A stretch of DNA of 64,000 bases, taken from the IMG/VR virus record IMGVR_UViG_2529292828_000009; one strand, written 5' to 3'. Both the position numbers and the translations under genes were made by a program. Every line of letters begins with the position of its first letter. Positions within the stretch are counted from its first letter, which is position 1. Source of the stretch: a virus. Its lineage: Duplodnaviria; Heunggongvirae; Uroviricota; Caudoviricetes. Under the pieces are notes generated by a model that was given only the letters and a program-made list of their open reading frames with translations, searched no databases and was not told where the DNA came from. Positions 31,253 to 52,430 of this stretch are shown here, piece by piece.

Positions 31253-31903
31253 TTAATTTGATTTATTCGCATCCATCAACGCTTTTAACTCCTCCGGCGT
31301 AAAAGGTGGTTTGCGTCGGTGCAACATCGCATGGCAATTAGGACACACAGGAAGCAAATCATTAACTGGATCCAGCAGGTAATCCTCTTTAACGGCTGAA
31401 AGCGGCACCAGGTGATGCATATGGATAAAGCCCTCAGCGATATCGCCATAGATCTTCACCAGATCAACGCCGCATACGTTGCACTGGCATCCGTGATATT
31501 CGACTGCTTTCTCGCGAGCTTTTTTATCGCGTTCATAGCGGTTTACCGTCACCTTTATCGCCGCACCTTCAACGTAGGTCCCCTGCGACGGCAACTCATC
31601 CGGGAACAGAACATCGGCTATGGGAGCCGCAGCGGCTTTATCCTGATGAATATGAAATCCCTGATCTATAAGTAGTTTGACGCATTTAGATTTTATTCCG
31701 CCGGTGAAATCCGCAGGGGTAAATTGCGTCCCCGTCATCAATGTCGCTGCGATGCCAGCAATCGCCTTCGAGGGGTAACGTCGGCCATGATATTCAATTT
31801 CATACAACCGTGCAGGCTGGAACTGATGAGTTTCTCCCGCATCCCATAAATGAATAGCTTCGATGATATACCGCCGCGGAAGATGATCGGGGAGTTTATT
31901 CAT
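31253..31903 (-). CDS. HNH endonuclease with an unassigned ~110-aa N-terminal domain
   Basis: C-terminal CQCNVCG...HMHHLVPL...CPNCHAMLH HNH zinc-finger nuclease motif. Confidence 0.65.
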   Translation of the reverse strand: MNKLPDHLPRRYIIEAIHLWDAGETHQFQPARLYEIEYHGRRYPSKAIAGIAATLMTGTQFTPADFTGGIKSKCVKLLIDQGFHIHQDKAAAAPIADVLFPDELPSQGTYVEGAAIKVTVNRYERDKKAREKAVEYHGCQCNVCGVDLVKIYGDIAEGFIHMHHLVPLSAVKEDYLLDPVNDLLPVCPNCHAMLHRRKPPFTPEELKALMDANKSN

Positions 31904-32668: not shown

Positions 32669-32704
32669 TGGTGCGAAGGTGCGAAGGTGCGAAGGCCGGA
32701 CTCG
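32669..32704. repeat. Degenerate copy of the leuX 3-prime end (distal att of the P4-like island), with triplicated TGCGAAGG
   Basis: GGTGCGAAGG TGCGAAGG TGCGAAGGCCGGACTCG matches tRNA-end sequence GAAGGCCGGACTCG. Confidence 0.6.
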
Positions 32705-33055
32705 CATATTCATTTAAATTGTTGTAAAAAATGGATTTTATTAATAATTAATTCAATTATGCCCCCTTTTGTGCCCCCTCCATTCGCTGTTCACATTTTG
32801 ATTTTTGTTGATTATTTATCCAAAAATTATCGAAGAAATAGTCAATCCAGTTAGGTTCCGTTAAACGGATCCAAACCGGGACTTGACTCAACAAAAAATA
32901 CTTTTTTTTCGCAAAACCATGCACACTATTCACTCTGCAACTTTTAATTTATATATCAATTGGTTATGTATTAACAGTTAGGTGAAGAGTGAACTGCTAT
33001 CTCTACATTCGTACGTTTCCAATAAGAAACCCGGCATCAGCCGGGTTAGTTGTAA

Positions 33056-35440
33056 TTATTTGATTGTTAGCTCATCACACTTGGGAAGCCAGTCTGCATT
33101 ACTTTCCTCTTTTAAAGTGAGGTTAGTCTGCATTCCCTGATTAGTTCGCCGCTTCTCATAATTTAGCCCGTATTCCTTCAGCATAACTGGTAGCCCTTTG
33201 CCAAACATTGTCAGGCTAAGGGTATTTTTAAAGCCATTAGCCTCCATGTATACGAGATAGGCATGGTAAAGGTACGTACGTGGCTGGCGCGGGACAATAT
33301 TGGCGTTCCCCATAAACATGCCGTTGGTGTCAGGTAATGCCTCAAGGTAGCCACAAAAATCAAATGCTGGATCAGCATCACGCTTGATGGTGAGAGCCTC
33401 ATCAGAATTCTGCTGCGACTGAAGCAATGTTCTGGCGCTCATCGGATCGCTGAAACGCTGCATGAGCTGACGAACAATCACAGCCAGTTCTCGTGCAATT
33501 TTATCTTTCAACTGCGGATCGCGTTCTTCCGGTGCTATCTGCTCAGGAAAATGCAGAATAACTCTCCTGCGGGACACACCACCACTGCGATCAGTGAAGC
33601 GCATAGGATTATTATTTACGGCCAAGATAACCGCCGGAATATGTGTTGAATAAGCATTCTGATATTTGGGGTCCACAGATACTGCATCGCCACCAGTTAT
33701 AGCCTTAAGCCCGGCGCCGTCGCCGCTCCACTTCTCCTGATCAGGCAGGCGAATAAGAGAAAAACCTATCAGAGCCGCACGTTCTCGCGGGGACTCCAGC
33801 GTTTCAATGGTCGCAGAGGTGGCGTTATCCTCTCCAGCAAGCATGGTCGCAATTTCAGCCAGAATACTTTTGCCACTTCCACCAGGGCCAGTCACTTCCA
33901 GAAAGAGCTGCCAGTCATAACGGTTCGCCAGCACCATAAATAACGCTGCAAGAATAATGTCGCGTTTTGCTGGCTTGTGTCCGGCGGCCCGGTCCAACCA
34001 ACGCCAGAATGCCGGGGCATGAGTTTCAAGCGTTTCCCCCTTTACCGGTGGCGTGAAATCGACTTCACACAGGGTACGCAGCCAGTTCTCTTTACAGTGC
34101 GGACTAAAAAGCCCTGTTCGCGTATCGAGAACGCCATTACGAAAACCAATCAGATGACGTGACGGATTTTGCTGCTGCGGAACAATTAACTTTAATGTTT
34201 CCACCAGTGAGGCAATTTTTCCTGAGGAAAACGGTGCCCCGAGGCGCTGGAAAAGGGCTGCGACATCTCGGGCAAAATCTGACTGAGAAATAACTTTCCA
34301 CGCTCCAGACTCGTAGCGGGATAAAAGCTGCCCGTTCGGATCAACCGCCAGTGCATCCCTGTAATGCTCCCGAACCCTCTGAGCTTTTTCGCTGACACTC
34401 ATCGCTGTGAATTCTGCTTCACTCATTGTGTCGAAAGGACTGGCGTTATGTGGCTTCAAAGCCTCAAGAATTGCCTTCCGGGTGGATTCCTCTCCGTATT
34501 GGGTAAGCGCATCATTCCAGTCACCAAAAACCGGTGGCAGCACAATGTCACACTGACTCGCTTTTGCAGCAGTTTCAGCCCTGTTCTGGCCTGAACCATT
34601 CAGATCGCGGTCCGCTGCAATAATTAACTGATATCCAGGATACTTATTATGGGCAACGCTGCTCAGAGAAAGAAAGTTGACCGACGAAAATGCCACCATG
34701 ACGGCTTCTCCTGTCAAATAATGAATGGTAAGCGCCGTGGCGTAACCTTCCGTAATCCAAATCCTTCTTACAGAACTCCCGCCCCCTTCTATCAGATGAT
34801 AGGCCTCCTTAACCTGACCTCCTTTAAGAAAACACTTGCTACCATTGCTACTGATAAGCTGAATATTCACCAGCTCCCCGTCAGCGTTATAGAGTGGGAC
34901 GATCAAATCACCGGGGCGGAACATCACACCACCGGCCTTATGAGCTGAAGTCAGCTCATGGCAAATATGCTCCGGGAAACCTTTATGTGTAAGATAAGTG
35001 TTTCCGGCAGATTCACGCGAGGCTTGCAGCAGTCGCGCGGCAAGTGCTGCCGCTGCATCTTTCCCGCTATCGGTATCGGCGGTTAACGTCCTGACCTCGG
35101 AATTAACTATAGACAGATCATGTGTCAGTCCATGTATCCTGTCAGCTGCTTCACTGATATCCACATTCAGTGCCCTGGTGACAAGCGCTAAACCATCCCC
35201 GGCTCCGCACTGATTGCAGAACCATGTTCCGCGTCCTTCCTGATCGTCGAAGCGAAAACGATCTTTACCGCCACAGACCGGGCAAGGCTGATGGCGATTT
35301 TTCAATATATTCACGCCCAGCGCTGGCAGAATCTGAGCCCAGTGACCGCGGGCAGCCTTCACGGCCTGACTGACTTTCATTCCTGACATGACGCAGTTCT
35401 CCCTCAGTGTAAAACCGGCTTTTTGATGTGACGGACGCAT
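33056..35440 (-). CDS. P4 alpha-like primase / helicase
   Basis: N-terminal zinc-binding CPVCGG...CNQCG, central Toprim-like region, C-terminal Walker A GPGGSGKS; true start probably at MSGMKVSQ. Confidence 0.8.
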
Positions 35441-35727
35441 AACTCATCCATTACGGCTATTCCGAGCTGGGAGAGTGCGGGACAGGACATTAGAGGGCCG
35501 TATTCCATCAGGTCTGAAAGCAGGGCGCAGGCGATTTCCATGCCTTTTGTTTGCCCGTGCTGTCGCAGATAAAATCCTTCAAGCTCACGGGCAATAGCGG
35601 TTTCAATTTCATCCAGAGTGAGCTGCAGATGGCGGTTTTGCTGATAGCAGGCACTCAACCAGGCGCAGGCTACCGCGCGGCGATACAACGCTACCCGAAG
35701 TGAAAGGGAAAGAGTGCGTGATTTCAT
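35404..35727 (-). CDS. P4-like hypothetical protein upstream of primase
   Basis: 107 aa ORF, position. Confidence 0.3.
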
Positions 35728-35987
35728 TGCACCACCTCCATGTTCATGAGGTCATCCTGGCAACGCTGTACCACGCCATCAAGCTGCTCTGTCATCAGAT
35801 AAATCAGGGAAACCAGTTGTTCACATTGAGCACTGGCAGGTTTTTCGTAGCAATCCTGAAGAACAGCCATTCCAGTGACAAACTCTCCCACGTTACGAAG
35901 ATGCTTCAGGCGGAGAATATCGTCATAAGAGATTGCGGCGTGATTCATTAGATCACCTCCCGGACAGGCAGGCGAGCAGCAAGACAA
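35724..35987 (-). CDS. P4-like hypothetical protein
   Basis: 87 aa ORF, position. Confidence 0.3.
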
Positions 35988-36139
35988 AGCACATACTCAT
36001 GGACCAGTGAAAGACGTGCATGATGCTCATTGCTGGCGATGATACGCAGCATACTGATACGTGGTTTACGTTCTGCACGACGAACGGCGGCAAAAACAAA
36101 TATAAATTGAGGATGTGACGGGGCGAGGATCGTAGCCAT

Positions 36140-36410
36140 AAGGGCAACCTCCAATAAGTAGCGGTAAATGCCACCACCGGAGTTCCTACGCTCATGGGTG
36201 GTGACCCGAACGGGGGTAGGAATACCGGCCTTATTGGAAACCGGCCAGCCCGAAGGCTGCCCCGCCCGGACCACCATTATCTGAAAGGGGCTAAGGTATA
36301 AGCACCGCAGCCCGAAAAATGGGTGTGCCTGAGCAACGACGTAAAAAAAGACGCACGGCGCGTCTGGTGTCGCCAATAAGTAACTCGGGTTCCTACGCCC
36401 GGCAGCCGAT
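36140..36410 (-). ncRNA. Candidate structured RNA / P4-type RNA immunity region (direct repeats flanking a complementary element)
   Basis: CCAATAAGTA...GTTCCTACGC at 36151-36191 and again at 36373-36400; complementary GGCCTTATTGG at 36227-36237; GC-rich, no convincing ORF. Confidence 0.35.
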
Positions 36411-36492
36411 TTTGCGGCAGCGGGAAAACTATACCTGGAAAAGATATCAGGACGCAAGCCAGAAAAAAGGAGATGAGACTGCAAAGCAAGTT

Positions 36493-36753
36493 TCACGCAT
36501 GGCCTCCTTGCTCGCGGGCAGCAATTCGCGCCGCCATCCATGCACTGACCTCCGACTGTACCCAGGCCACATTTTTTCCACCCAGGGATATCTGCTGCGG
36601 GAAGGCATCGCGGCTGATAAGGTCGTAGATGGTTGAACGGGATAGCCCGCAAAGGTGCATCACTTCAGGTAATCGTATGAAGCGCTCCTGCTGAGCCGGA
36701 ACCGGGAGCACCGGAGCAGCTGGTGCCGGGGTGGAAACGGAAATACTATTCAT
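36493..36753 (-). CDS. AlpA-family phage transcriptional regulator / excisionase-like
   Basis: [25 protein letters not shown]. Confidence 0.75.
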
Positions 36754-37299
36754 CTGGCTACCTCTCTAATATGTTTACAACAGTCCGGGCAATTCCATGC
36801 GGATTCAGGTAGCTCCTTATTATGTTTATATAAGCGGCTCGCGCATGCTTTATTTATTTTGTGTGAAATGTTGATTTCTCAAAAAATAAAACAGCTAAAA
36901 ACCGTATGAAACGAACAAAAACAAACAATTCCTTTATGGAATATAATAAGGAGCATCAATAATAAAAAAGTCTATTACACTAGGCAGGATCACAGCTCAA
37001 ATCTGAACCAGCCCATATCATTCAGGGCTTTACATCATAAGCACTAAGACAACACCTGATTAATAAAAGAGCCAAAAACGGCCAAAAATAAACAGCTCAC
37101 CATATGTATCAATAAATCCGATGATTAAAGAAATTAAATTACCATCTTACTTCCGCATGTATCCGAATGTGTTTAATGAACATCAGACAAATTCATTTTT
37201 ATGAATATTTTCCTGAAATGCAACTGAGTGCAGGGAGGTTGAATGTTCAATTATTAAACAGATATAAGACATCTTTTATTCTTTACATAGAATATGTAT

Positions 37300-37503
37300 T
37301 GAATACTGGTGAATATTGGTGAGGAGAAAAGATCCAGTAATAAACTGAAATAAATATCGCGACTTATATGAAAAAGAAATATATGTTTAATTTTATCTCT
37401 GTGAACAGTCATGAACAGTAGATGATCACTTTAATTAAAACACTACACCACTTAACCACATGTATTTACTATATTTTTATTGAAGTGAACAGTAGTGAAT
37501 AGT
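37300..37503. repeat. Clusters of tandem 9-10 bp repeats (GTGAACAGT / GTGAATAYTGG) upstream of the sid-like operon
   Basis: gtgaacagt at 37401-37409, atgaacagt 37411-37419, gtgaacagt 37485-37493, gtgaatagt 37495-37503; gaatactggt gaatattggt at 37301-37320. Confidence 0.5.
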
Positions 37504-37625
37504 ATGTATTAAAGGAAGCGTGTAGATCAGACATGACACCTTTCTCTGGCTAGCCAGAACAAGGTCATTGTTCAGTCACTGACACAATCCTCCTCGGTAG
37601 TGCGCTTGTATGGACCCCGGCACAA

Positions 37626-38411
37626 TTGACACAACAACAAAACACTACCGGAGCAGCCATGACAACTGTTAACCAGATCTCTGATGCAAACATTACCCCC
37701 ACCCTCCCGCCGAAAATTCGCGAAGCGGTGGAAAAAGTTAAGGCAGCAAAAGCTGTCTGGCAGGAAGAACGGCGAAAACAAACCGAAGCTGCTGCAATGA
37801 CTGAAACTATCCGTAAACGTCAGGAAGATACAAAAACGGAGACGCAGGCGCTTAATGATGAATGGCGAAACCTGTTTCGTGAGAATCAGGGGAATATGAC
37901 GCCACGAATGAAAAAACTGCGGGCAGAAATCGCCCTCGGACGCGAAACACTAGATGAGTTCGAAGATTTGCTGGCTGCTCAGGCTGCAGAAAATGAATTC
38001 CTGCCATGGAAAACTGCGGATGCTGCAAACCGCTACATCAGCGAACATAATCACCTGATTGAAACTCATGCAGTGTGGCTCTGGAATGAGTTTATGAAGG
38101 AACACGGCCAGAAACTTATTCAGATCCTTGGACTGCTGAAAATGACTCTGGGCCGAAGCGCATCTTCTGTTATCGGTGTAGTTCATACCGTAAACGACCC
38201 CGAAAGTGTGCTGAAGCAATTTATCAGCGAGCAACTCACCACTCCGGCACTGTTCTGTAACGTATCTTCAACGGATGATATTGCCCTGCCGGGGATCAGC
38301 ATTTATGCGGACGATAAAGCCATACAGGATGCCAGACAATCACCCAGCCCTGCAGCACGTTCCCGGATGCTTAAACAGCGTGACATGGCTAAAGGGGGCG
38401 AGAAGGAATGA
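37626..38411 (+). CDS. P4 Sid-like protein (putative external scaffold / capsid size determination)
   Basis: 261 aa coiled-coil-rich protein first in the psu-containing operon; assignment by position. Confidence 0.4.
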   Translation: MTQQQNTTGAAMTTVNQISDANITPTLPPKIREAVEKVKAAKAVWQEERRKQTEAAAMTETIRKRQEDTKTETQALNDEWRNLFRENQGNMTPRMKKLRAEIALGRETLDEFEDLLAAQAAENEFLPWKTADAANRYISEHNHLIETHAVWLWNEFMKEHGQKLIQILGLLKMTLGRSASSVIGVVHTVNDPESVLKQFISEQLTTPALFCNVSSTDDIALPGISIYADDKAIQDARQSPSPAARSRMLKQRDMAKGGEKE

Positions 38412-38962
38412 ATACCGGAACCATTACTCAGGAAGCTCTCAACGATTACCGCGCGGCAATAAAAAGCTGGCTGACACTACGTAATGTGCAAAGTACCAGC
38501 CAGCTTCGTCTGGCTGCTTTGCTGGATACTGAAGAAAAACCCGCAGCATATGCCAGCCAACTTGAGGATCTTCGTGAGCGTCTTGCACTCCTCGAATGGC
38601 AGATTAACTGTGCCGCCCGGGATGGTCTTTATGCTCACCAGATTGTGCTGGAAAGCTGTGTTACAAGCGCAACTGAAAACTTCATGAGCGAGCATGGTGA
38701 TGCACTCACTGACGCTCTGGCTCCTTTTCTTTGTGCACCATACGGGCTTGAGGCGGCAATGAAAATATTACGAACCGCTGTAGCCCGACAAACGGAAGTC
38801 CGTACTCCGGTAATTTCAGCAGCATATAAGAGCATTATCGACGAAACCGGATTAACGGTGGATGCATCAATGCGCGCTGATGCTTCAGCCAGTTTCACCC
38901 CGGCACAACATAAAGTTTTCCTGGCCCGCCTTAACCGACTTAATGAAAAAGGAGTGTGCTGA
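38408..38962 (+). CDS. P4 Psu-like protein (polarity suppression / capsid decoration)
   Basis: 184 aa; HGDALTDALAP and SFTPAQ motifs resemble P4 Psu as I recall it. Confidence 0.55.
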   Translation: MNTGTITQEALNDYRAAIKSWLTLRNVQSTSQLRLAALLDTEEKPAAYASQLEDLRERLALLEWQINCAARDGLYAHQIVLESCVTSATENFMSEHGDALTDALAPFLCAPYGLEAAMKILRTAVARQTEVRTPVISAAYKSIIDETGLTVDASMRADASASFTPAQHKVFLARLNRLNEKGVC

Positions 38963-38963
38963 T

Positions 38964-39236
38964 ATGGCCCTGAAGTGTCCTGAATGTGGCGCGGTCGCTC
39001 ACGCCAGAACCAGCGCCTATGAAGCTCCGTCGGTTAAACGCTCATGGTATCAGTGCCAGAATCTGGAATGTTCCTGCACATTTACCGCACTGGAAAGCGT
39101 GGATACGATAATTATGAAGCCTCGGTGCAATGAACAGGAATCAGACAAAGCAAAAATACCGGAAAAACAACAGCAAACTCTCAATCGCTATGGCTCCGCG
39201 TCAAAGCTGTCAAACCGTCAGCAAATTCCTGTCTGA
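38964..39236 (+). CDS. Ogr/Delta-family zinc-finger late transcription activator
   Basis: MALKCPECG...YQCQNLECSCTF; start at 38964 with AAAAAGGAG upstream. Confidence 0.75.
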   Translation: MALKCPECGAVAHARTSAYEAPSVKRSWYQCQNLECSCTFTALESVDTIIMKPRCNEQESDKAKIPEKQQQTLNRYGSASKLSNRQQIPV

Positions 39237-39842
39237 TTAGCAAAATACGACCACGAAGTCCCGGTCCAGTACCGGGATTTTTTACGCCTTTTCCCTGGCT
39301 GGCCTGAGAGCGTATGAGTGCATATCTATGGCGCATGAAAACGCATGAGTCTCATGCGCCATTTTTGACGCGAAAGCCCTTGTGTGGTGGCTTCTGAGAC
39401 GATTTACGGGGTGCATGAAAACCAGTCTGTTAAGCGAAGCTGGCAGGCGGGCGGGGCTGCTCGCGCTAAGGGAGAAAATAGCAAACTCAGCCGCGCAGGC
39501 GGTGACAATGATTGACGAGATACTGGCTGGCAGTTGCTGAAATCTCCGCAATGATTCAAGAACTGCAGTGTATCGATGCAGCACACGTAAACTGAGCGGC
39601 GCTACGGGTAATATTTATAGATTTGTCATCCTTAGTGAGCATGGTTCTCACTCTTGTAACCTCTACCTGTACAAGATATCGTAAGACCTCAGATCAAACA
39701 TGCACGTGTATTAAAGGTGGGCAAGCGTGGCGGGAAGATAATTGTGCGCACTGTAGTCAAAGATAGGGATTGTGATTACTTTTTCTTCCAGCCGTGGTGT
39801 AGTAAATTATTGGGAACAAACTCTTAATGACATCAATGGATA

Positions 39843-41141
39843 ATGATTATGACTACAAATCCGGACGGATACATCTCATTTTTAAAACCCGGTAGTAACG
39901 ACTGGAAAGCATTAGATAGTAAATCGTTTATTTATTGGCGAGACTACATAACGAATGAAAGTTTAGAAGAGTCAGGAGATTCTATTTCTCCAGCACAATC
40001 TCTTACTGATGGTGAAAAGAAGGAGTTGAAAGACAATCAGGCATATATAAACGAACTATTACTAAAATCATTACAATTCCCAAATCTTGCATTCTTCGCT
40101 GGGAGTGGTACTTCGCTTGGGGACGTTGGAGGACCAAGCATGTGGGATCTCTGGAAGTGTGCAATGTGGAGTGAATCTTCTATAAACGAGGATGGTCAAT
40201 TAAAACCTGATGCTCAAATTGTTTGTGATAAAGTAAAATATAAAGAGCGAGAGTATCCTAACATAGAACACTTTCTTTCTAATTGTGAAGCATATTTAGC
40301 ATTTCATGATGATGAAGAAGTGTTGAATTTTTTAAATAAAGTTAAAACAATTATTTTAGACAAATGTCGCTCATTTATTGATGATGGCAACTGTGATCTT
40401 TCAGCTTACATCAATTTATTACAAAAAATGGGGAGGAGGAGAGTCAGAGATCCTAGACTAAAAGTTTTCACAACTAACTATGATTTAGCCTTTGAAACAG
40501 CTGCTTCTGAATTAGGAATGATGGTAGTTGATGGTCTTTCATATACAGGAGTTCGCAGATTCGATGGTAAATATTTTAACTACGATGTTGTTAAAAGAGA
40601 TGAAAACGAGCATGAGTTTGTAGAGGGCGTATTCCAGTTATTTAAACTCCACGGTTCTGTAAGTTGGATAAGAAAGGATGGGCAAATATATGAATCCAGC
40701 CAACCAACAGCAACAAACGCATGTCTAATATATCCAGCGAAAGGTAAATATCAGCAAGCCTTTATTCAACCTCACTTAGAATTACTTTCAAGATTGTTAG
40801 ATTTCTTGAGAAAAAGAAATAACTGTTTAGTTATATCTGGATTTGGTTTCAATGATGACCATCTTTCTGAACCAATTTACTCAGCAATAAAATCCAATCC
40901 AAGCATGAGGTTGATTATAGTAGATTTCAAATGTGCAACTCATATTCGGAATAAAGGGGGGGACGGTTCTAGTAAATATTGGGATTTACTAAAACAACTC
41001 TCACTATCAGGTTATGACATTCACTTCATAAATGCATCTTTCAGTGATTTTGTTAAATTAGTTCCCAATCTTAAAGCATTAACCCCAGCAGAACAGTTGG
41101 CTAAGGTAATAAAACAAGTAGGAGTTAACAATCAATTATGA
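39843..41141 (+). CDS. SIR2-family (sirtuin-like NADase) protein, partner of HerA
   Basis: FFAGSGTS Rossmann loop, VFTTNYD, KLHGS motifs; 432 aa. Confidence 0.7.
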   Translation: MIMTTNPDGYISFLKPGSNDWKALDSKSFIYWRDYITNESLEESGDSISPAQSLTDGEKKELKDNQAYINELLLKSLQFPNLAFFAGSGTSLGDVGGPSMWDLWKCAMWSESSINEDGQLKPDAQIVCDKVKYKEREYPNIEHFLSNCEAYLAFHDDEEVLNFLNKVKTIILDKCRSFIDDGNCDLSAYINLLQKMGRRRVRDPRLKVFTTNYDLAFETAASELGMMVVDGLSYTGVRRFDGKYFNYDVVKRDENEHEFVEGVFQLFKLHGSVSWIRKDGQIYESSQPTATNACLIYPAKGKYQQAFIQPHLELLSRLLDFLRKRNNCLVISGFGFNDDHLSEPIYSAIKSNPSMRLIIVDFKCATHIRNKGGDGSSKYWDLLKQLSLSGYDIHFINASFSDFVKLVPNLKALTPAEQLAKVIKQVGVNNQL

Positions 41142-42859
41142 TTAATACAACACTACAGCTTGGTATTTTGAGGGGCGACCTTAAGGTTGGAGTAGTCTCA
41201 TCAATTTTTGCTCAAACAGTTAGAGCAAATTTAATCTATGCAGGGGAACTCAGCGGAACATATATAGAAGGTTGTAGATATGGAAAAGGAGAAGTTGGTG
41301 AAATATTATTAATAGAAGGACAACAATCTATTGTTCTTGGCCGTTTAATAGAGGTTAAATTACCAGAGCGAGATAGAGGTGAAATATCTGTCGGGTCTCA
41401 AGGAAACTTCAAAGTTGATGCTATCGGCATTATACAACTTCTTGGAACTATTGATCCTTCAAATTTTAGAATTGATTCAGGAATCAAATCATATCCTCGA
41501 TTAGGAGATCGAGTTTATTCTGCTCCCTTAGATTTTATTTCTTTAATACCAGAATTAATTAATAAAGGAATTAAAGATAACGAGGAAGAAAGAATAGGTA
41601 TTGTATTAGGCATTATATCTGGAGGGGCAACAAGTATAGTAACTGTTGAACCTGATAAACTCTTCGGTCGTCATTGTGCTATCTTAGGAGCTACAGGCGG
41701 TGGAAAAAGTTGGACAACTTCCAAGTTAATTGAAGAGTGTTCGAATTACGAAAACTCTAAAACTATAATAATTGATGCAACCAGTGAGTATAGATCGTTT
41801 AAATCTGATTATTGTTTACATTACCATTTAGGTGCCCCAATAAATAAAAACATAAATTCTTTAGAATTTAGAATTCCACCTACCGACTTTGTTGAGTCAG
41901 ACTTTATTGCCATGTTCGATCCTTCTGGAAAAGTACAGGGTCCTAAGCTAAAAGAAGCGATAAAAAGCCTTAGATTAGTAGCTTTAGAACCTAGAATAGC
42001 AACCGATGGTATTTTAAAAAAAATCAATCAACCTAAAACAGATTATCGACGCGCAATGAATACTGGAGACAACTCTAAACTTGTTGATAATCCATCACAA
42101 CCATTTGATATAACAAAACTTATAAAACAGATTGTACAAGAATGTTGTTACGATAATGGAGATAATACTTGGGGAAACGCTGCAACTCAAGACTTAAGCT
42201 ATTGCTCATCTTTGTTAACCAGAATTCAAGCAGTAACGTATGCCAACTCGTTAAGGTCTGTTTTTAATAGTAACGAGGATATATCCACACTAGGTGAAAT
42301 ATTAGAAACTTTTTTACAATCTGATAAACGAGTCCTAAGGTTATGCCTAAGTGATGTTAGCTATGAGTTTTATGCTAGAGAAATTTTAGCCAATGTAATC
42401 GGCAGAAAACTTTTAACTTTAGCTAGGCTTGAAAAATTCAGAACAAGACCGCTGTTAGTTATTGTTGATGAAGCCCATAACTTCCTTGGCAAACGGGTTG
42501 GTTCTGAAGATCATGCAATTAAACTTGACGCTTTTGAGATGATTGCAAAAGAAGGCAGGAAATATGGCCTTAATATATGCTTAACAACTCAAAGACCCAG
42601 AGATATCACTGAAGGTGTGCTTAGTCAAATTGGAACCTTATTGGTTCATCGCTTAACAAACGACCGAGATCGAGAAGTCGTTGAGCGTGCATGCGGTGAA
42701 ATTGATAAATCTGCAGCATCTTTTCTACCAAGTCTCAAACAAGGTGAAGTTGCTCTTGTAGGGGTTGACTTCCCTATTCCTATGACCATCCAGATAGATA
42801 AGCCAATATATCCACCAGAATCTGATTCTCCAGGCTATTGCAATATATGGAAAAAATAA
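41138..42859 (+). CDS. HerA-like FtsK/HerA-family ATPase
   Basis: Walker A AILGATGGGKSWT, Walker B LLVIVDEAHNF, TTQRP; 4-nt ATGA overlap with SIR2 gene. Confidence 0.8.
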   Translation: MINTTLQLGILRGDLKVGVVSSIFAQTVRANLIYAGELSGTYIEGCRYGKGEVGEILLIEGQQSIVLGRLIEVKLPERDRGEISVGSQGNFKVDAIGIIQLLGTIDPSNFRIDSGIKSYPRLGDRVYSAPLDFISLIPELINKGIKDNEEERIGIVLGIISGGATSIVTVEPDKLFGRHCAILGATGGGKSWTTSKLIEECSNYENSKTIIIDATSEYRSFKSDYCLHYHLGAPINKNINSLEFRIPPTDFVESDFIAMFDPSGKVQGPKLKEAIKSLRLVALEPRIATDGILKKINQPKTDYRRAMNTGDNSKLVDNPSQPFDITKLIKQIVQECCYDNGDNTWGNAATQDLSYCSSLLTRIQAVTYANSLRSVFNSNEDISTLGEILETFLQSDKRVLRLCLSDVSYEFYAREILANVIGRKLLTLARLEKFRTRPLLVIVDEAHNFLGKRVGSEDHAIKLDAFEMIAKEGRKYGLNICLTTQRPRDITEGVLSQIGTLLVHRLTNDRDREVVERACGEIDKSAASFLPSLKQGEVALVGVDFPIPMTIQIDKPIYPPESDSPGYCNIWKK

Positions 42860-42897
42860 TTAGTAGGGTCTTTGACCCTACTTTAAAATTTTTAAAG

Positions 42898-44169
42898 CTA
42901 GATAGTTTTTTTTGCAAAGTCGTAGGGGGTTATATATTCCTGAGTGTTAGCATCAAGATAATCGGCCCACCACTGAACCATTAAACGACGCTCATCCAAA
43001 TGCTCTGAAGTATGAATATAAGCAGCCCTAACGCTATTACGCTCAGAGTGGCTTAGCTGACGTTCTATCGCGTCATCACTCCACAACCCTGATTCGCCCA
43101 AAGCACCGCGCGCCATAGTTCTGAATCCATGCCCGCAAACTTCGGTTTTTGTGTCATACCCCATTGTGCGCAAAGCACTGTTAACCGTGTTTTCACTCAT
43201 AACTTTAGTTGCGTCATGATCTCCCGGAAACAGTAGCTCTTTATCACCACTAATCTGCTTAAGCTGCTCTAACAAAATCATCGCCTGCCGACTAAGCGGA
43301 ACGATATGCTCCTCTTTCATCTTCATCCCACGGTACGAGTAACGGACACCTTTAATTTCTTCTCGTTTTGCCGGTATACGCCAAAGAGATTTATCGAAGT
43401 CGAATTCATCCCAGCGAGCGAAACGCAACTCACTGGAACGCACAAAAGTTAGTAAGGAAAGCTCGACTGCAATCCGTGTCATTAAACGGCCACGATATGC
43501 AGCAAGACGTGCAAGAAACTCAGGGAAACGGTTAGAGGGTAAAGCTGGATAGTGTCGTGCTTTGGTTGTCGATAAAGCACCAGCCATATCACTGGCTGGG
43601 TTTGAGTCGATATAATCGTTCTGTACGGCATAACGCATAATAGCTGTAACACGCTGCTGAAGACGCTGCGCGACGTCATGCTTACCACTGGCATCAACTT
43701 TTTTAATCGGGGCTAACAGGTGGCTTGTTTTAAGCTGGCGGATATCGGACGATCCGATATGAGGGAAGATATAAAGCTCAAGATAGCGAAGAACGCGCGC
43801 TCTATGGTCTTCACTCCAGCGCTTGTTACTGGCATGCCATTCACGAGCGATCGTTTCGAAAGTATATGCCCCCGATTTCTCGGCCTGAGCCGCTTTCTGC
43901 TCGGCTTTTGGATCAATACCCTGCACTAATAATCTTTTAGCTTCATCACGTTTTGCCCTTGCCTGGGCAAGTGTCACAGTAGGCCAAACGCCAAAAGCGA
44001 GGCGATCCTCTTTTTTGTCTGAAGGGCGTCTGTATTTCATACGCCAGTATTTAGATCCCTTGGCCGAAACCTCAAGATACAAACCGCCACCATCGGCCAT
44101 TTTGTAGGTTTTGTCTTTTGGCTTTGCGGTCTCGACCAGTCTGGCGTTGAGCTTCATTTGGGGGCACAT
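42898..44169 (-). CDS. P4-family tyrosine integrase of the satellite island
   Basis: Homologous to the integrase at 62135-63385 (shared AVMRYAVQN, FVRSSELRFARW, VCGHGFR, RAAYIH); probable start MKLNARL at 44157. Confidence 0.85.
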   Translation of the reverse strand: MCPQMKLNARLVETAKPKDKTYKMADGGGLYLEVSAKGSKYWRMKYRRPSDKKEDRLAFGVWPTVTLAQARAKRDEAKRLLVQGIDPKAEQKAAQAEKSGAYTFETIAREWHASNKRWSEDHRARVLRYLELYIFPHIGSSDIRQLKTSHLLAPIKKVDASGKHDVAQRLQQRVTAIMRYAVQNDYIDSNPASDMAGALSTTKARHYPALPSNRFPEFLARLAAYRGRLMTRIAVELSLLTFVRSSELRFARWDEFDFDKSLWRIPAKREEIKGVRYSYRGMKMKEEHIVPLSRQAMILLEQLKQISGDKELLFPGDHDATKVMSENTVNSALRTMGYDTKTEVCGHGFRTMARGALGESGLWSDDAIERQLSHSERNSVRAAYIHTSEHLDERRLMVQWWADYLDANTQEYITPYDFAKKTI

Positions 44170-44320
44170 TTCTAATCGAAGTCAAGATGCCCCTAATTAT
44201 GCCCCCAATGGCATCCGGATTTCAACGGACAATCTCGGACGACTCCGGACATAAGAATCACTGTACTCATTGAATTATAAGGAACAATTGGACTTTCTCG
44301 GATGATCTTGGAAGTGCTAA

Positions 44321-44344
44321 TGGTGCCGAAGGCCGGACTCGAAC
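44321..44344. repeat. 24-bp direct repeat of the leuX 3-prime end (att junction between the two islands)
   Basis: TGGTGCCGAAGGCCGGACTCGAAC identical to 63575-63598. Confidence 0.85.
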
Positions 44345-44691
44345 ATCGCAACTATCCTTATGATCTTTAGTAATTAAAGCAATCTACATTGTCGATGATA
44401 CCATCATTGATACCATCAGACCCGATTGATGATAATCGAACAGTAATAAAATATGACTAAACAATTTATGCTTCAACATAAGATTGAATGCTTTGATCTA
44501 CCATTTTAATGCAGTGGAAAAATTTTTAACACAATACTTAAGAAAAATAATTTCATATAAAAACTACATTTCATTTCATATAGTTAACACACCAAAAACA
44601 ACTGTATATAAACCCAGTAAAAAATGGTAGAATCACTATTGTGTTCAATTGTTGAACATTTATAATACATTTGTCGGATAGGGGGGTGTTT

Positions 44692-45279
44692 ATGCAAAGG
44701 AACACATACAACAAAGTAGGTCTATACATCCTATCTTTAGCTATGCTTTTTGTTTTTATTATTATCCTGACTGCCAAAATCCCCTTTTGCTTCACTTCGG
44801 ATTGTAGCTTCATAGGTTTGAAGAGACTTGTATTAACAAATATTGTTCCTATTGTTTGCTTTGTATTTTTTCTATTTAGTATTTATTTTTATAATAGATT
44901 AAAAAACATAACAAAATACAATGGACAAGATAGCGTTAAAATAACATCATGTCAAAGCGAAAGCTATGAAAGTTTAACATTCTTAGCAACATACATTGTA
45001 CCTTTTATGGGGTTTAGTTTTGAAGACATGCAAAAGAATATAGCATATCTTTTGCTTGTAGTAGTAATAGGCATTATTTTTATTAAAACAGACAAGTATT
45101 ATGCGAATCCAACTTTAGCTCTGTTTGGCTTTAAACTATACAGGGTAAATATACTACACCCAGGAAGTGGAGAAACAAAAAATCTGATAGCTATTTCAAA
45201 TGATGTATTAAAAGTGGACGATAATGTTTATTATAGTTTCTTTGATGAATTTGTTTTTATAGCAAGGAAAAAAATATGA
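44692..45279 (+). CDS. Four-TM membrane protein, KwaA-like (Kiwa defence system component A)
   Basis: Four hydrophobic helices; ATG at 44692 after a G-rich RBS; 4-nt overlap with the downstream gene; call is by architecture only. Confidence 0.45.
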   Translation: MQRNTYNKVGLYILSLAMLFVFIIILTAKIPFCFTSDCSFIGLKRLVLTNIVPIVCFVFFLFSIYFYNRLKNITKYNGQDSVKITSCQSESYESLTFLATYIVPFMGFSFEDMQKNIAYLLLVVVIGIIFIKTDKYYANPTLALFGFKLYRVNILHPGSGETKNLIAISNDVLKVDDNVYYSFFDEFVFIARKKI

Positions 45280-46223
45280 CTACTCAGCAGTTAAAAGAAA
45301 AAATTTCAAAAATAATTGATAACTTTAGCGGAATCAGGGTTGTATTTACTACTACTGCTAATGAACTAAAGCTTTCCAGAATTGAAGGGAGTGCATTAAA
45401 TAGCATAGCTGAAGGGTTTATTGACAAAATCAAAGAAGACATTATAAATAATGAAGATCTCACCTCACCATTGCTGTCCAATTTTGATGATAGAAAAAAT
45501 GCCTTGTTTAAATTTGATTACGAACAATATCCTGAAGAATTTAACAAAATCACTCAGGCCATCGCTATCCCTCCTAACTCACAAGATTATTATAACCCTT
45601 TAAATAAATTCACAGATGTGAAAGGAATTATAATTTTAATAAGTGGAGATAACAAATGCCTGGCTCTTTATAAAAACAAAACTAACCTTGCAGTATTGAG
45701 AAATAGCAGAAAAATGTTTAATTTAGTCCCTGACCCTGATGGATACTTGAAACAACTCCCTAATGAGATATTACGGTTAGATTTCAATTATGATCTATTA
45801 TCAATTGGTGAGGATTTTTACATTAAAAATCACAAGACTCTTGAAACTCAAATGAAATTTCATCAAGTGATTGAAGCCCAGGCAGTTATTGCTTTAAATT
45901 CTTTACGGGATTCACTACTAATTGAAGACATATCAGGTTTAGAAAAGAGTTCGAGAGAAATTTCATTCGCTAGAAAGTTGGCAAAAATCTCCAAACATTC
46001 TCCTGTTTTGGGGAAAATAGATACTAAAACAATTATCGATTATGTATCCCAACATAAATATTTATCTGCAATACTTCAGATTAATGAAGCAGGAAATAAG
46101 TTATTAATTAAAACCAAGACATCACAGAAGCATTTCATTAAACTCATGAGCGATGATTATTTACAATCAGATCTAACTAAAATAATATACATGAGCATAG
46201 CAAAAGACAGATTAGATGAATAG
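45276..46223 (+). CDS. KwaB-like soluble protein (DUF4868-like, Kiwa component B)
   Basis: 315 aa, coupled to the upstream 4-TM protein; call by size and architecture. Confidence 0.45.
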   Translation: MTTQQLKEKISKIIDNFSGIRVVFTTTANELKLSRIEGSALNSIAEGFIDKIKEDIINNEDLTSPLLSNFDDRKNALFKFDYEQYPEEFNKITQAIAIPPNSQDYYNPLNKFTDVKGIIILISGDNKCLALYKNKTNLAVLRNSRKMFNLVPDPDGYLKQLPNEILRLDFNYDLLSIGEDFYIKNHKTLETQMKFHQVIEAQAVIALNSLRDSLLIEDISGLEKSSREISFARKLAKISKHSPVLGKIDTKTIIDYVSQHKYLSAILQINEAGNKLLIKTKTSQKHFIKLMSDDYLQSDLTKIIYMSIAKDRLDE

Positions 46224-46237
46224 AATTTTAAGTAGAA

Positions 46238-46278
46238 GTGACAAATATTATAAACCATTCTTGAAATATATTTGTCAC
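46238..46278. terminator. Bidirectional hairpin between convergent genes
   Basis: 11-bp perfect inverted repeat GTGACAAATAT (46238-46248) / ATATTTGTCAC (46268-46278). Confidence 0.5.
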
Positions 46279-46287
46279 TATTACTAA

Positions 46288-46959
46288 TCATTCGCGTGCT
46301 TGATTATTTATGCTGGATGTTCTAATTGTTGCCGAATGCCAATACCCACCACTATATGTTCTTGCTATAGTAATAAATCCAGTACAGGTAATTACTGTCA
46401 TTAAAATCAGGAAAATATAATAGAAATTAAGCGGAGCTTTCAAATCAAAAGGAGGTAACGAATACACCAGCAACCCTATCCATACAATAGTTATAAATAA
46501 ACTAATAATTTGGTTTATCTTAGATACTGATATTGGAGATGGACCAGTAAGTAAATGAACCGAAAACTCTTTTATTCCTTTCGGTTTTGCACGAGATAAC
46601 ACCACTTTATATAGTGGACCATTAATATTATCTTCTAACATATCGACATGTTTTTCCCAGTTTCCCTGCCAATATTTACTACCACGGTTAACACAGAGCC
46701 AACCGAATGAAAATACAATTCCCAGTGAACACAGTAATACGGATAAATCTGTCTTAGCTGTAGAAGAGGAAGTCTGTATAGCAACAAAACCAGCTAAAGT
46801 TGCCGCTATAAAAGTCCAGAAATAAGTTGCTCTTTTCCAGTAATGGTCTATCTCATATTTCCGTATATCTAAAGCCTGTAGCAGAGCATTCTTATTACAG
46901 TCTCTATCATTAAGAAAACGGCTACGATATTCCTCATCTGAAAATGGAGTAATTGGCAT
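46288..46959 (-). CDS. Orphan multi-TM membrane protein with a SLATT-like N-terminal arrangement
   Basis: Charged helix, then TM pair (YFWTFIAATLAGFVAI ... LSVLLCSLGIVFSFGWLCV), then two further C-terminal TM helices; no match recognised. Confidence 0.5.
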   Translation of the reverse strand: MPITPFSDEEYRSRFLNDRDCNKNALLQALDIRKYEIDHYWKRATYFWTFIAATLAGFVAIQTSSSTAKTDLSVLLCSLGIVFSFGWLCVNRGSKYWQGNWEKHVDMLEDNINGPLYKVVLSRAKPKGIKEFSVHLLTGPSPISVSKINQIISLFITIVWIGLLVYSLPPFDLKAPLNFYYIFLILMTVITCTGFITIARTYSGGYWHSATIRTSSINNQARE

Positions 46960-46985
46960 ATTGATTTACCTCTATTTATAATAGT

Positions 46986-47013
46986 AAAAGAGGGGTCCCC
47001 CCCCCTCTTTTTT
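46986..47013 (-). terminator. Rho-independent terminator at the 3-prime end of the RM gene
   Basis: AAAAGAGGGG (46986-46995) / CCCCTCTTTT (47002-47011) stem with flanking T-run. Confidence 0.55.
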
Positions 47014-50000
47014 AGTTATTTTTAAACAAAACCTTTACTATTCCATCTATATCCCTTAGGAAACTCTCGAAAGAGGATCTATTAGCCTTAGCTTCATGAG
47101 CCTTTTTTGAAAGTTCAGACAGCTCACGATGCTTTTTATTACCTTCATCATAAAGAGGAACATTAATTGGAGGTCTGATTTTAAAAGTTCTGCTATCACT
47201 GGACTTCAGAATGTACTCCCCAGTGATTGATGAGTTAAAAATAGCACAAATGTAATGTGCCTCATCCAGGGTAATAAATTTACCATCTTGCCTCTGAGAT
47301 ATACTCACAGCATGGTTCTGAAATAAAGGTCTCTTTTTGTCACCCCATGGAGTATCCATTTGACTCACAACTGCTGCTGCCCATTTAGTGTTATCACGAA
47401 AACAAACAAAATGATCACCATAAGTATATTCACCTACACGAGCCAATGCGTAAAATGCAGTAATATTGCTTTTACCTATGATTTTGTCATTGTATCGAGT
47501 CTGCGACTCTAATAACTGTTTATTATTAATGAAATAGTCAGCCAACATAGGGCTTTCTTTAACAAGCTCATCTACAGGTATCGGTTTACGACTCAATTCT
47601 CTATATGGAAAGGGTACGAAGAACTCAACATCTTTTACCCCAAAAGGTTCAATATTTGTTCCTTTAATCAGGGGGTATATATGCTTGGTTTCAGCAAAAA
47701 TCATTTGTTTTGCCACTTTATACTTAGACTTGCCACCCTGATAATTTTCAAAAATTGCAGTGTTGTTAGCTTTTTTTGTCTTAAATTTCCATAAGAATAA
47801 TTCTTGAGGGAAAAATTCAATCCCTTCCCTGCCATGATATTCGCAATATCCACTGATATTTCTGTAATCATTGAGTTTTTCGGAATCTGAAGCATATGTA
47901 AAGGCTGTATTGCTTACACTAACAGTGCCAGCGATCTCTTTACGGATAGAGAACTCATGCGAAATAGCATTAAAATGCGTATGCTGTGAGTAGCTATCAA
48001 GGCTTCTTCCGGTTTTATTTTTCGTCAAAAATGTTAAAGGTATCCCTTTTAAATAATCGACATTTTTTGACGAGAATAAATAAGTCGCAAACTTGATTGT
48101 AACAGGCTTGAATGGATGCCCGGATTCACTCCAGTCGTATACCTCTTGGAGATATAGTTTTTGGTTATCCCCAAAGTTAAACTCTCGAAATCCTTCATAT
48201 GTTTGCTGGAAAAGGATATTTTGAGGCATAAGGAATGCCAATATGCCATCTTTCTCTAACCAGTTTTCAGCAGATACATTAGAAATTAATGCACAAATGT
48301 TAAGGTTTATACCACCAGTAAGCCTATCACCAGAAAATAGGCTCCTACTTAAGCATAAGCCTTTAATTCGTTCTCGATATCCTGCAGGTAAATTTTTCCA
48401 GTCAATCCATGGTGGATTACCAACAACCATATTAAATTTGCCTAAGTTTGCAGTGGTCAAAAAATTAGTGACTATTCTAGCCCAAATTCCATTCCAGTCT
48501 CTTTCTTCTAGTTCGACAAACTTATCTGATAAAGTTTTTAATTTTTCATAAATGCTAGGAGAACTACTAATATCCCCACTTACTTCGATTAATTTTGCAA
48601 AAACACTATCACGATCTCGAAGTTTAATATATCGTTCAATATCAACAATTGCTTTTGAGAACTTATGAGAATCACTCAAAGCTTGAGTAGGCATCTCGAT
48701 ATAAATCGAGCCTTGCAAAGTATTTATTTCGTATCGCAAACAGTCAATGCCATCAATTATGACCTTTTCTGGAACATACGATGCGTCACCAAGATAAATT
48801 GGAATTTCAACTTCGCTACCTTCATCAAGCAAATGTGATATATTGATGAAATAGTTGATTCTTGCAGTTAAAGCTGCAAGAGGATTTAAATCAATACCTT
48901 TGACAGATGTTATGACATCTTTTAATTTAGCTTTGCTATCAGTATGAGTACGACTCAGAACTTTACCTATTAATGTAATTATAAAGGTTCCGCTACCACA
49001 ACATGGATCAATTGCAGTCCAGTTGTTCTTATTTACAACATGCTCTTCAGCAGAGGATATCAAATGCTCTGCAAGCCATTCAGGAGTGTAAAATTCTCCA
49101 AGAGAATGTCTTACTTTATCAGGAATAATGTTCATGTATAGATCTTTGAAAAGATCGTATACTTTTTCACCCTCTTTGAAAAGGTTTCCTTCCTCATATT
49201 CACTTAGTAATGAAAATATATTTTTAATACTAATGAATATATCATCTCCCCATTGTTCCTTAGTACAATACCAAGAGAAAAAGTCACCTTCCAGCAGGTT
49301 CAAAATCCCATACTTCCTGAAAATAGCACCTTCTTCTAATGTGTATAAATAGTTTCTCATTGATTCAGAGTTACTATTGATCATATCTGAAAAATTATAA
49401 TCATTTTCAAATACAAGTCCAGATAATGTTTTATAAGCTATTATTTTTACAATAATCGCATATGCAGTCTGGAGAGCATAAAGAACTTTATATTCATCAT
49501 CGTTAGTAAGTAACCTATGACCAGCAATATCTTCAAGTGATAACTTTCGTTCTAAAATTGCTGTTTGCTGAGATTTATCATCATGTGCAAGTCTAAATAG
49601 CTCCTTCCATTCGTTGAAGAGCATTTGAGAGCGGCCCGTCATGTTATTTTCAAGAGCCGAAAGAAGATTACCTATTAATTGAGTTGTTAAAGATGGAGAT
49701 CCATAGCAAAAATCATCAACGATGTTTTTTGGATGCAATGCCTTCTTATTCAAAAGAACTAAAAGCCCGCAAATTTTTTTAATTGCATTCTTATCAAGCG
49801 GTTGCAACTTTGATGTTAAAATGCCATCAGTATCACGAATAAGGTAATTAATACCGTCTGTTAGCACTCCAACATAGCGTTGATTCCCTTCTAACTTTAA
49901 AGAATCAAGGTAAGCCTGGATTTGAAGCACAGCCTTATTAATATCATTATCTTTTTTTAATTTCTCTCTATGCTTAAACTCTATTACTAAAGATCCAATA

Positions 50001-50290: not shown

Positions 50291-50835
50291 CGTTACATCT
50301 CTATGTTACATAGCAAATTTCTTATAATTTTACCACATTTCAATAAATATTTCATCATGTTTGTTTGGTATTATCCATACACTTGAGAAAAGTTAATTTC
50401 ACAATTAAGCAAGGGCTAACTCTCCGAAGCTCCGCTTCTTATAGTTCCCCTTGATTTTCTTTCTTTCAGTCAGAAAATACAGACATTTCATCATGAAAAT
50501 TGATAATTTATTTTTAGTATTAAAGTATTATCTCACCTTATCGCCGAACCGATTTGAGATTTAGTGCAACTATAAGTATAGTTCCCCTGACAAATAGCTT
50601 TCTTATTTAAGTAACGGTTAAACGATAGGGCCTCACTACTGGTGCCAATCATGCCATACTCTCAAATGCTACCCCTGCAGACAGGGCTCTACTACCGTAA
50701 AGCTGGCATAAAGTATTATAGTTACCTCTCTTAAAAGGAATTTCTAACTCATGTACCAGATCTACATGAGTTCTACATCCCCCTGATGAACTTAGCAGTG
50801 ATAGCTAACCGATACTGAAGTGTACTGCTGAGTGA

Positions 50836-50887
50836 TTTGACAAATAGAAAATATTAAGCTATAACAGTTGTATCCTACAGGATACAA
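50836..50887 (+). promoter_or_regulatory. Sigma70-like promoter (TTGACA-17 bp-TATAAC) followed by a perfect palindromic operator
   Basis: TTGACA 50836-50841, TATAAC 50859-50864, palindrome GTTGTATCCTACAGGATACAAC 50866-50887. Confidence 0.55.
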
Positions 50888-50899
50888 CATGAGAGCATT

Positions 50900-51157: not shown

Positions 51158-51170
51158 AGAGGAGAGATTT

Positions 51171-51671: not shown

Positions 51672-52013
51672 TCCCCCATTTTAAGAACGAGGATTGTACA
51701 CCCACCTGATTCAATAGCATTCTCTTAATTCGTTTATATGCCCTTGTCCTCATGATAGAATTGAGTACAGAATAGCTTCTCCAAAAAGGAAAATAATGCG
51801 GATAATTATAGCATTTTTAATTTATTCCCTGCGAGTTAAATACCTTTACTATTATAAGATAAAAACCCAAGCATTAGCATAACTTCATTTCATACATCAC
51901 ATCCCCTCACATTTTCTTCATTACATGTTGACATGAAATAAATTTACTTATAATTATATAATATCAATAAGTAATATAGGGCATTTTAACACACACATAT
52001 AAAAGGAGTTTAT

Positions 52014-52418: not shown

Positions 52419-52430
52419 AAATTTCTAATT

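Follow-up and report, generated by a model that had tools for sequence, protein, structure and literature searches.

The closest described relatives of the locus treated here are the immunity region of the satellite phage P4, the immI modules of the phages P1 and P7 and the IsrK locus of Gifsy-1. In P4, whose immunity mechanism has been summarised several times (PMC10111431, PMC4825925, PMC3632133), an antisense RNA named CI carries an element, seqB, that pairs with the flanking targets seqA and seqC. Kil of P4 forms the end of a longer open reading frame (ORF), eta; the constitutive promoter, seqA and CI all lie inside eta, and its translation prevents termination (PMC10111431). In P4-like prophages the RNA families IsrK and C4 correspond to seqA and CI, respectively (PMC3632133; PMC4825925), and a large survey of P4-like satellites does without any mention of RNA (PMC8628076). 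Here we describe positions 36,140 to 36,410 of a stretch of 64,000 nucleotides (nt), called the window throughout, from a virus of the Caudoviricetes (IMG/VR record IMGVR_UViG_2529292828_000009). By analogy with P4, this region is very probably an immunity switch that maintains the lysogeny of a P4-like satellite prophage, most likely working as its P4 counterpart does. Sequence anatomy, Rfam membership, covariation and ORF conservation were computed here, and the functional steps of the model are inferred from P4 and P1.

The RNA elements of the probable immunity region

A sequence-only reading of the window had described two direct repeats and, between them, a stretch complementary to the first part of the repeat. 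A repeat search together with inspection of the sequence finds all three where they had been placed: CCAATAAGTA at 36151-36160 and 36373-36382, GTTCCTACGC at 36182-36191 and 36389-36398, and GGCCTTATTGG between the copies at 36227-36237. The complementarity to the first part of the repeat is real, but it extends further, since the second half of the repeat is also complementary to the middle element; the inverted repeats are 36150-36158/36230-36238 (9 nt, 100%), 36177-36189/36216-36228 (13 nt, 85%) and 36211-36222/36390-36401 (12 nt, 92%). The motif CCAATAAG has 6 copies in the window, where about 2.7 are expected, and 3 of them lie inside the 230-nt stretch treated here. This arrangement of repeats and complement did not arise by chance, because the three-way complementarity recurs with other sequences in P4 and in 73 diverged relatives.

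The covariance-model search that the same reading had proposed returns two RNA families, both over the full length of the model and above the gathering threshold: RF01695, the C4 antisense RNA family, to which P4 CI RNA belongs (83.4 bits against a threshold of 45, model positions 1-87 of 87), and RF01394, IsrK (72.1 bits against 50, positions 1-77 of 77). P4 gives the same Rfam matches in the same order, with 74.9 bits for RF01695. The CI candidate has the features of an RF01695 member, namely the score, the structure of stem, hairpins and linker, and two boxes complementary to an upstream and a downstream target (Table 1). Its minimum free energy (MFE) is -47.2 kcal/mol (z -3.25), and both the MFE and the centroid structure equal the family consensus. 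The proposal of a P4-type immunity in which a seqB RNA pairs with flanking seqA and seqC is thus supported on every point tested: by the Rfam matches, by their order in P4, by the published equivalence of IsrK with seqA and of C4 with CI, and by covariation.

Upstream of CI lies the leader. Its -10 hexamer, TATAGT, is identical to and aligned with the hexamer annotated as a consensus -10 in the P4 record; the transcription start is predicted near 36421, and the IsrK model begins 7 nt after the -10. The intrinsic terminator forms the 3' part of the IsrK model and is kept in 73 of 73 relatives, with GC/CG covariation at one pair. Its position corresponds to that of the first leader terminator of P4; the P4 leader terminators are reportedly described by Forti et al. 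1995 and by Briani et al. 2000. An antiterminator pairing between GGCG after seqA and CGCC in the terminator was considered and dropped, the columns being invariant and covariation uninformative.

Covariation among related satellites

P4-like loci were gathered from IMG/VR by a search with the alpha protein together with a pattern for the C4 core, and 144 unique regions were extracted; the alignment used comprises 73 loci that differ mutually at more than 8 positions. A loose pattern, GCAAAATCNGCNNCCGGG, applied to genome contigs gave 120 loci of which about 6 are related, the rest being mostly chance matches.

Compensatory change in related satellites, which had been named as a check, is found at all three sites. 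Between seqA and seqB 99.4% of the alignment cells are paired and 13 of the 15 pairs have changed on both sides (296 cells), compared with 38-51% in slid controls; between seqB and seqC the figures are 98.4% and 12 of 15, with slid controls at 36-47%. Several of these pairs are seen in three or four pair types. The same holds when the boxes are taken separately. Each helix with box 2 has 7 pairs, all cells paired (100%) and 6 pairs changed on both sides, at seqA as at seqC, and each helix with box 1 has 8 pairs, with 98.8% of cells paired and 7 pairs changed on both sides at seqA, and 97.1% and 6 pairs at seqC. An alignment-free check finds pairing of box 1 at 8 of 8 positions at both targets in 133 of 141 loci.

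For the internal helices (leader, terminator and CI closing stem) the share of paired cells is 99.5%, and 10 of their pairs show changes on both sides. In the CI closing stem taken alone every cell is paired across the 73 sequences (100%), and 4 pairs have changed on both sides; the leader hairpins are paired in 97-100% of cells, again with compensatory changes. The two small CI hairpins are invariant in the relatives, but they were fixed by the collecting pattern and are uninformative.

One locus departs from this matching: in IMG/VR L291:1659-1952 the CI carries box 1 of the window type, CCAAUAAG, and its own seqA and seqC are complementary to CCUUGAAG, with 6 of 8 positions pairing. This locus may be a natural recombinant without self-immunity, or an assembly chimera.

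The eta frame and the kil gene

The region had been placed in a non-coding stretch between an AlpA-like gene (36493-36753) and the small ORFs before the primase. The location agrees with the Pfam matches and with the annotation of strain D6, which carries an identical locus; the stretch is coding, however, being spanned by the conserved ORF eta/kil. The ORF at 35948-36652, dismissed earlier as spurious, is instead the homologue of P4 eta, and its last 63 codons are a Kil/Icd-like gene. The sequence-only reading had also held that its proposal would be refuted if the ORF proved to be a real conserved protein. That was a false alternative, since in P4 the RNA elements sit within eta (PMC10111431), and a conserved ORF does not refute the RNA model because ORF and RNA are parts of one switch.

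The 234-amino-acid (aa) ORF is the eta frame extended upstream. Its TTG start at 36652 was rejected in favour of the GTG at 36496, which has a strong Shine-Dalgarno sequence (AGGAGG, 36508..36503, six bases upstream) and overlaps the alpA stop as GTGA; the Prokaryotic Genome Annotation Pipeline (PGAP) calls the same start in strain D6 and labels the product 'Icd-like'. PF10554 (Phage_ASH) matches aa 74-183 of the longer ORF with 113 bits, which corresponds to window positions 36433..36104 and so to leader, CI and seqC, and NF033153 (phage_ICD_like) matches aa 183-230. As in P4, the ORF runs from the alpA stop over promoter, seqA, CI and seqC, and Kil has a Shine-Dalgarno sequence and an ATG of its own. 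Forti et al. 1995 are said to give the same arrangement for P4 eta. The Kil protein is 71% identical to P4 Kil and 43-49% identical to the Icd-region proteins of N15, phiKO2 and PY54, its relatives in these three phages ranging over 41-50%. By analogy, kil would be the first gene translated from the transcripts of the PLE-like promoter, and its product would be toxic when overexpressed. The GGAG before its ATG is kept across the family.

Read back from kil, the eta frame stays open beyond the IsrK leader motif in 130 of 135 unique relatives; the other two frames do so in 3 and 1. The distances between the leader motif and the kil ATG (273, 276, 279, 282, 300, 312 and 321) are all multiples of three, and the rare distances that are not fall mostly in loci with broken frames. 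Within kil the third codon position varies most, and the ratio of nonsynonymous to synonymous polymorphism (pN/pS) is 0.32; in all the eta segments that lie upstream, by contrast, pN/pS is 0.9-1.5 and third-position change is not in excess. The simplest reading of these patterns is that upstream eta is selected for being translatable and not for a given polypeptide, which fits a model of antitermination by translation.

Two further observations concern this part of the window. PF10554 serves as the 'epsilon' profile in the large survey of P4-like satellites (PMC8628076), though P4 epsilon is a different gene according to the P4 record. An 80-aa ORF with an ATG start at 35953-36195 on the minus strand, in another frame and overlapping seqC and kil, matches no Pfam or NCBIfam family and is probably spurious.

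Table 1. Features of the probable immunity region and of the element that carries it, in window coordinates
Feature	Position	Strand	Remarks
PLE-like constitutive promoter (predicted), within eta	36428..36457	minus	-35 TTGCGT 36457..36452; 18-nt spacer; -10 TATAGT 36433..36428
IsrK-type leader RNA	36344..36421	minus	Two hairpins, seqA, intrinsic terminator; RF01394
seqA, complement of box 2 (RNA GUAGGAA)	36390..36396	minus	Loop of leader hairpin 2
seqA, complement of box 1 (RNA CUUAUUGG)	36373..36380	minus	Single-stranded, between hairpin 2 and terminator
Intrinsic terminator, directly after seqA	36343..36365	minus	AGACGC-GCCGU-GCGUCU then U7 (terminator scan)
CI (C4-family) antisense RNA	36194..36281	minus	17-bp closing stem, hairpins 1 and 2, single-stranded linker
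seqB box 1 (RNA CCAAUAAG)	36230..36237	minus	Loop of CI hairpin 2
seqB box 2 (RNA UUCCUAC)	36216..36222	minus	Single-stranded linker of CI
seqC, complement of box 2 (RNA GUAGGAA)	36183..36189	minus	Inverted repeats, covariation
seqC, complement of box 1 (RNA CUUAUUGG, 36158..36151)	36148..36158	minus	Overlaps kil Shine-Dalgarno GGAGG 36152..36148
kil / Icd-like gene, 63 aa	35948..36139	minus	ATG 36139..36137; nested at the 3' end of eta; NF033153, 67 bits
eta homologue, 182 aa	35948..36496	minus	GTG start 36496; spans all RNA elements; ends as kil
C-rich, G-poor stretch at the kil start	36061..36160	minus	Candidate Rho-loading region, by analogy with P4 timm
AlpA/Vis-like regulator gene, 86 aa	36493..36753	minus	PF05930 (Phage_AlpA), 71.8 bits; position as P4 ORF88
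Genes downstream of the switch	33056..35948	minus	Small ORF 35724-35948; DUF5375 35404-35727; alpha primase-helicase 33056-35389
P4-like satellite prophage, whole	32690..44344		About 11.65 kb; ends are repeats of the tRNA-Leu 3' end

Predicted allele specificity

An alignment with P4 shows that the boxes differ, CCUGUGAA and UUCUCAC in P4 compared with CCAAUAAG and UUCCUAC in the window, and that seqA and seqC have changed to match. The predicted duplexes of the window CI with its own targets have energies of -30.5 and -31.0 kcal/mol. With the P4 targets the values are -19.9 and -22.1 kcal/mol; P4 CI on the window targets is predicted at -23.6 to -24.2 kcal/mol, and much of the energy of such non-cognate duplexes comes from the shared GC-rich stems. 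Both boxes and both targets differ from those of P4; therefore immunity to its own allele class, and not to P4, is predicted, and the satellite is probably heteroimmune to P4.

Among the 73 loci there are 18 alleles of box 1 and 7 of box 2, which occur in 38 combinations, and in each of these seqA and seqC match the boxes; the pair found in the window is present in 5 of the 73. This near-independent assortment of the boxes suggests frequent recombination between immunity types. We consider the chances about even that P4-like satellites have a two-box combinatorial immunity code together with an eta whose N-terminal two-thirds are held open purely for translation, PF10554 then amounting in essence to a conceptual translation of two RNA genes. 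If true, the two-box code implies that three sites have repeatedly recombined or been co-converted and that there are many classes heteroimmune to one another. No systematic description of a two-box code or of an open but unconstrained eta was found in the accessible literature.

Proposed mechanism and alternatives

In the prophage, the PLE-like promoter would make an untranslated minus-strand leader that contains seqA, the terminator, the CI precursor and seqC. The precursor would be cut to a stable RNA of about 80 nt, as happens in P4 and P1 by RNase P, which acts at the 5' end, and 3' trimming; the mature RNAs of the C4 family measure about 77-80 nt. This CI RNA would show box 1 in a hairpin loop and box 2 in the single-stranded linker, and so could bind the matching bipartite sites on nascent leader transcripts. 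At seqA its binding would favour a stop at the adjoining intrinsic terminator; at seqC it would cover the kil Shine-Dalgarno sequence, and the untranslated kil RNA would then expose a C-rich stretch at which Rho could halt transcription ahead of the replication genes, including the alpha primase. Upon induction or a signal from the helper, an upstream late promoter would transcribe alpA, and ribosomes would couple into eta at the GTGA. Translation of eta through seqA, CI and seqC would preclude termination, and the late transcript would be insensitive to immunity.

Some of our results weigh against this model or against parts of it. The way in which the relatives were collected biases the sample toward close ones, and the shuffle controls ignore relatedness; phylogeny has no bearing on the slid controls or on the finding of several pair types per pair. 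A generic scan for a strict sigma-70 consensus reports no promoter, because the -35 is weak; the PLE assignment was kept despite this null result because the -10 aligns with the annotated consensus -10 of P4. The folding of the minus-strand transcript, another of the earlier suggestions, bears out CI, but the folding energy of the leader is no better than that of shuffled sequences (z -0.05). The RF03163 model (c4-a1b1), which describes the C4 targets, matches at 36434..36382 with 43.8 bits, 3 bits under its gathering threshold of 46.7; P4 is also below that threshold, with 44.1 bits. RF03163 was built from sequences of the P1 type, and the element it describes is also covered by the IsrK model, which overlaps it. 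As to the Rho-dependent step, the C/G ratio of 1.7-1.9 at 36061..36160, which takes in the first 80 nt or so of kil, is the highest in the 800 nt scanned; it is a modest bias, joined to the analogy with P4, that would point to Rho.

Other explanations have to be set beside the P4-type switch. The short terminated leader, as a homologue of IsrK, could be the main regulator, acting either as a trans-activator as in Gifsy-1 or as a decoy that titrates CI. The module would then activate rather than repress, or the leader would serve as the decoy. It matches IsrK over the full length and ends in a strong terminator, which should yield a discrete RNA of about 75 nt; the Gifsy-1 homologue, whose function includes Hfq binding, opens a longer readthrough mRNA and so activates translation of a small ORF downstream and of the genes coupled to that ORF, with a stable C4-like species downstream of it (PMC4825925), and IsrK-like elements of P4-like prophages are required in Salmonella Typhi (PMC3632133). 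We hold this explanation to be unlikely, given that the covarying pairing of seqB and seqC over the kil Shine-Dalgarno sequence is what is expected of a repressing antisense RNA, that P4 genetics credit immunity to CI (PMC3632133, PMC4825925, PMC10111431) and that no antirepressor or antiterminator gene is seen downstream by Pfam or in the D6 annotation; a role for the IsrK-like leader may coexist with the P4-type model. What lies downstream also bears on the idea of a P1/N15-type, immI-like module that controls an antirepressor against the repressor of a helper phage and not the element's own replication. The C4 RNA family and an Icd-like first gene are indeed common to P1, N15, phiKO2 and PY54, but here kil is followed by a small ORF, DUF5375 and the alpha primase in P4 order, with no Ant/Bro-type gene in the Pfam matches or the D6 annotation, and the element is a P4-like satellite and not a plasmid prophage, which makes the idea very improbable.

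Equally hard to sustain is the view that the region is only protein-coding (Ash/Eta), its repeats reflecting constraint on the protein and the RNA matches being incidental. There is a PF10554 match of 113 bits and a coding sequence called by PGAP, and the frame is kept open with length changes almost all in multiples of three. Yet the pN/pS of 0.9-1.5 upstream of kil, without third-position excess, means that the amino-acid sequence is unconstrained; three separate sites vary in concert with base pairing kept in 98-99% of cells, which protein constraint cannot bring about, and both covariance models score far over threshold. It is also unlikely, and a little more so than a leading role for the leader, that the element is a cryptic remnant whose immunity region is conserved but no longer functional. 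Many P4-like prophages are cryptic, and the satellite sits behind a second island and not directly at the tRNA gene. Against decay stand the intact core genes and both att repeats, a size equal to that of P4, the intact state of the pairings, the terminator, the Shine-Dalgarno sequence and the eta frame, and the identical or near-identical copies in more than 100 complete Escherichia coli genomes. The P4-type immunity switch thus remains the preferred reading.

Host element and genomic setting

In a genome search the 4 kb around the RNA region are found with 100% identity in the chromosomes of many E. coli strains, and 116 complete-genome records match them at >=99%; some E. coli carry up to three related elements per genome. 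The element is an intact P4-like satellite at leuX, with the core genes int, psu, delta, sid, alpA and alpha in P4 order, and it is flanked by attachment (att) repeats at a tRNA gene. The att repeats are copies of the leuX 3' end and lie 11.65 kb apart, which gives the satellite the size of P4: the tRNA-Leu(caa) 3' end at 63574-63598 is repeated at 44320-44344, and a shorter copy stands at 32690-32704. The gene content by Pfam matches and the D6 annotation is int, SIR2-HerA, delta, psu, sid, alpA, eta/kil and alpha. In the D6 copy the annotated genes are integrase, the SIR2 and ATPase genes, ogr/delta, psu, a sid-like capsid gene and an AlpA-type regulator, followed by the 'Icd-like' coding sequence, a small ORF, DUF5375 and the primase-helicase. 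The AlpA/Vis-like gene, annotated as a helix-turn-helix/AlpA regulator in identical E. coli genomes, would by analogy be the first gene on the late-promoter transcript, with its stop codon overlapping the eta start. The protein of the small ORF at 35724-35948 has no family match.

The SIR2 (432 aa) and HerA-type ATPase (573 aa) genes lie at 39843-42859 on the plus strand, between delta and the integrase; their PADLOC scores are 273 and 553 bits, and the site is a known defence hotspot of P4-like satellites. Just beyond the satellite's attR there is an HNH endonuclease gene (31253-31903, minus strand), whose ORF has no PADLOC match, and near attR the D6 annotation has a fragment of a phosphorothioate-dependent restriction gene.

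In tandem with the satellite, and separating it from tRNA-Leu(caa), stands a second island of about 19 kb (44345-63574) with that same 25-nt tRNA 3'-end repeat at its borders; in strain D6, unlike in the window, the satellite integrase adjoins the tRNA gene directly. The island has an integrase of its own (62135-63385), a Kiwa KwaB-like gene (45276-46223), a type IIG restriction-methylase (47012-50290), a relaxase of the MobA/VirD2 type (52431-53621) and DUF6387. Three consecutive overlapping ORFs of 400, 454 and 624 aa occupy 55854-60224 on the minus strand; tyrosine recombinases account for the first two, no Pfam or PADLOC match was obtained for the third, and the layout resembles a 'recombinase in trio' element.

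Comparison with known systems

The locus is an ordinary member of the P4 immunity family, a kind that existing Rfam models recognise and that the literature has already treated for P4-like prophages, and what is particular to it is an uncharacterised pair of box alleles. The family-wide table of two-box alleles and the 'open but unconstrained' eta may be modest additions that extend known biology. The result is mainly a better annotation: RefSeq lists for strain D6 only an 'Icd-like protein' coding sequence and no RNA gene, whereas the stretch actually holds a lysogeny switch with a promoter, two structured RNAs, two target sites and a nested kil. The box alleles matter for predicting whether satellites coexist in one cell or exclude one another. 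There is also a caution here, in that a conserved ORF, even one with a Pfam family, can overlie RNA genes without selection on its amino-acid sequence.

The likeness to P4 extends to the same elements in the same order on the same strand, from the AlpA/Vis-like gene and the overlapping eta start through TATAGT, the IsrK-type leader, CI and seqC to Kil, with DUF5375 and then alpha downstream, and the element has the same size and leuX attachment. It differs in that the spacer from the leader terminator to CI is 45 nt shorter in the window, with the eta frame kept, and that eta starts at a single GTG and not at three ATGs as in P4; moreover, one small ORF takes the place of P4 epsilon and ORF151, and SIR2-HerA that of P4 gop/beta/cII.

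With the immI modules of P1 and P7 the window shares RF01695, two boxes for an upstream (a1/b1) and a downstream (a2/b2) target, and the coverage of the ribosome binding site of an Icd-like gene by the downstream target; the processing of a C4 RNA from a leader and heteroimmunity through changes in the boxes would be further common features. The controlled genes are replication genes in the window, whereas P1 has an antirepressor (ant). A protein search found no close match of Kil to P1 Icd at E <= 1e-3, and there is no ant downstream of the icd-like gene; the module would work like immI, but it is not an immI operon.

Judging by sequence similarity, the RNA module is common to phages well beyond the satellites. 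A query from CI to leader has 69% identity to dozens of Shiga toxin (Stx)-converting lambdoid phages (Stx2a: LC645413, LC7278xx) and 76-80% identity to phiKO2 and related linear plasmid prophages. With the IsrK-STnc1160-orf45-anrP locus of Gifsy-1 and the anti-immunity loci of N15, phiKO2 and PY54 the window has in common the IsrK-type leader, the terminator, the C4-like RNA and the Icd-like ORF, as well as a small ORF conserved in nucleotide rather than in amino-acid sequence. In Gifsy-1, however, the short leader is reported to trans-activate downstream translation, leading to an antirepressor and an antiterminator (PMC4825925), and the window is without such cargo; the P4-type repression model fits the window better than activation of the Gifsy-1 type.

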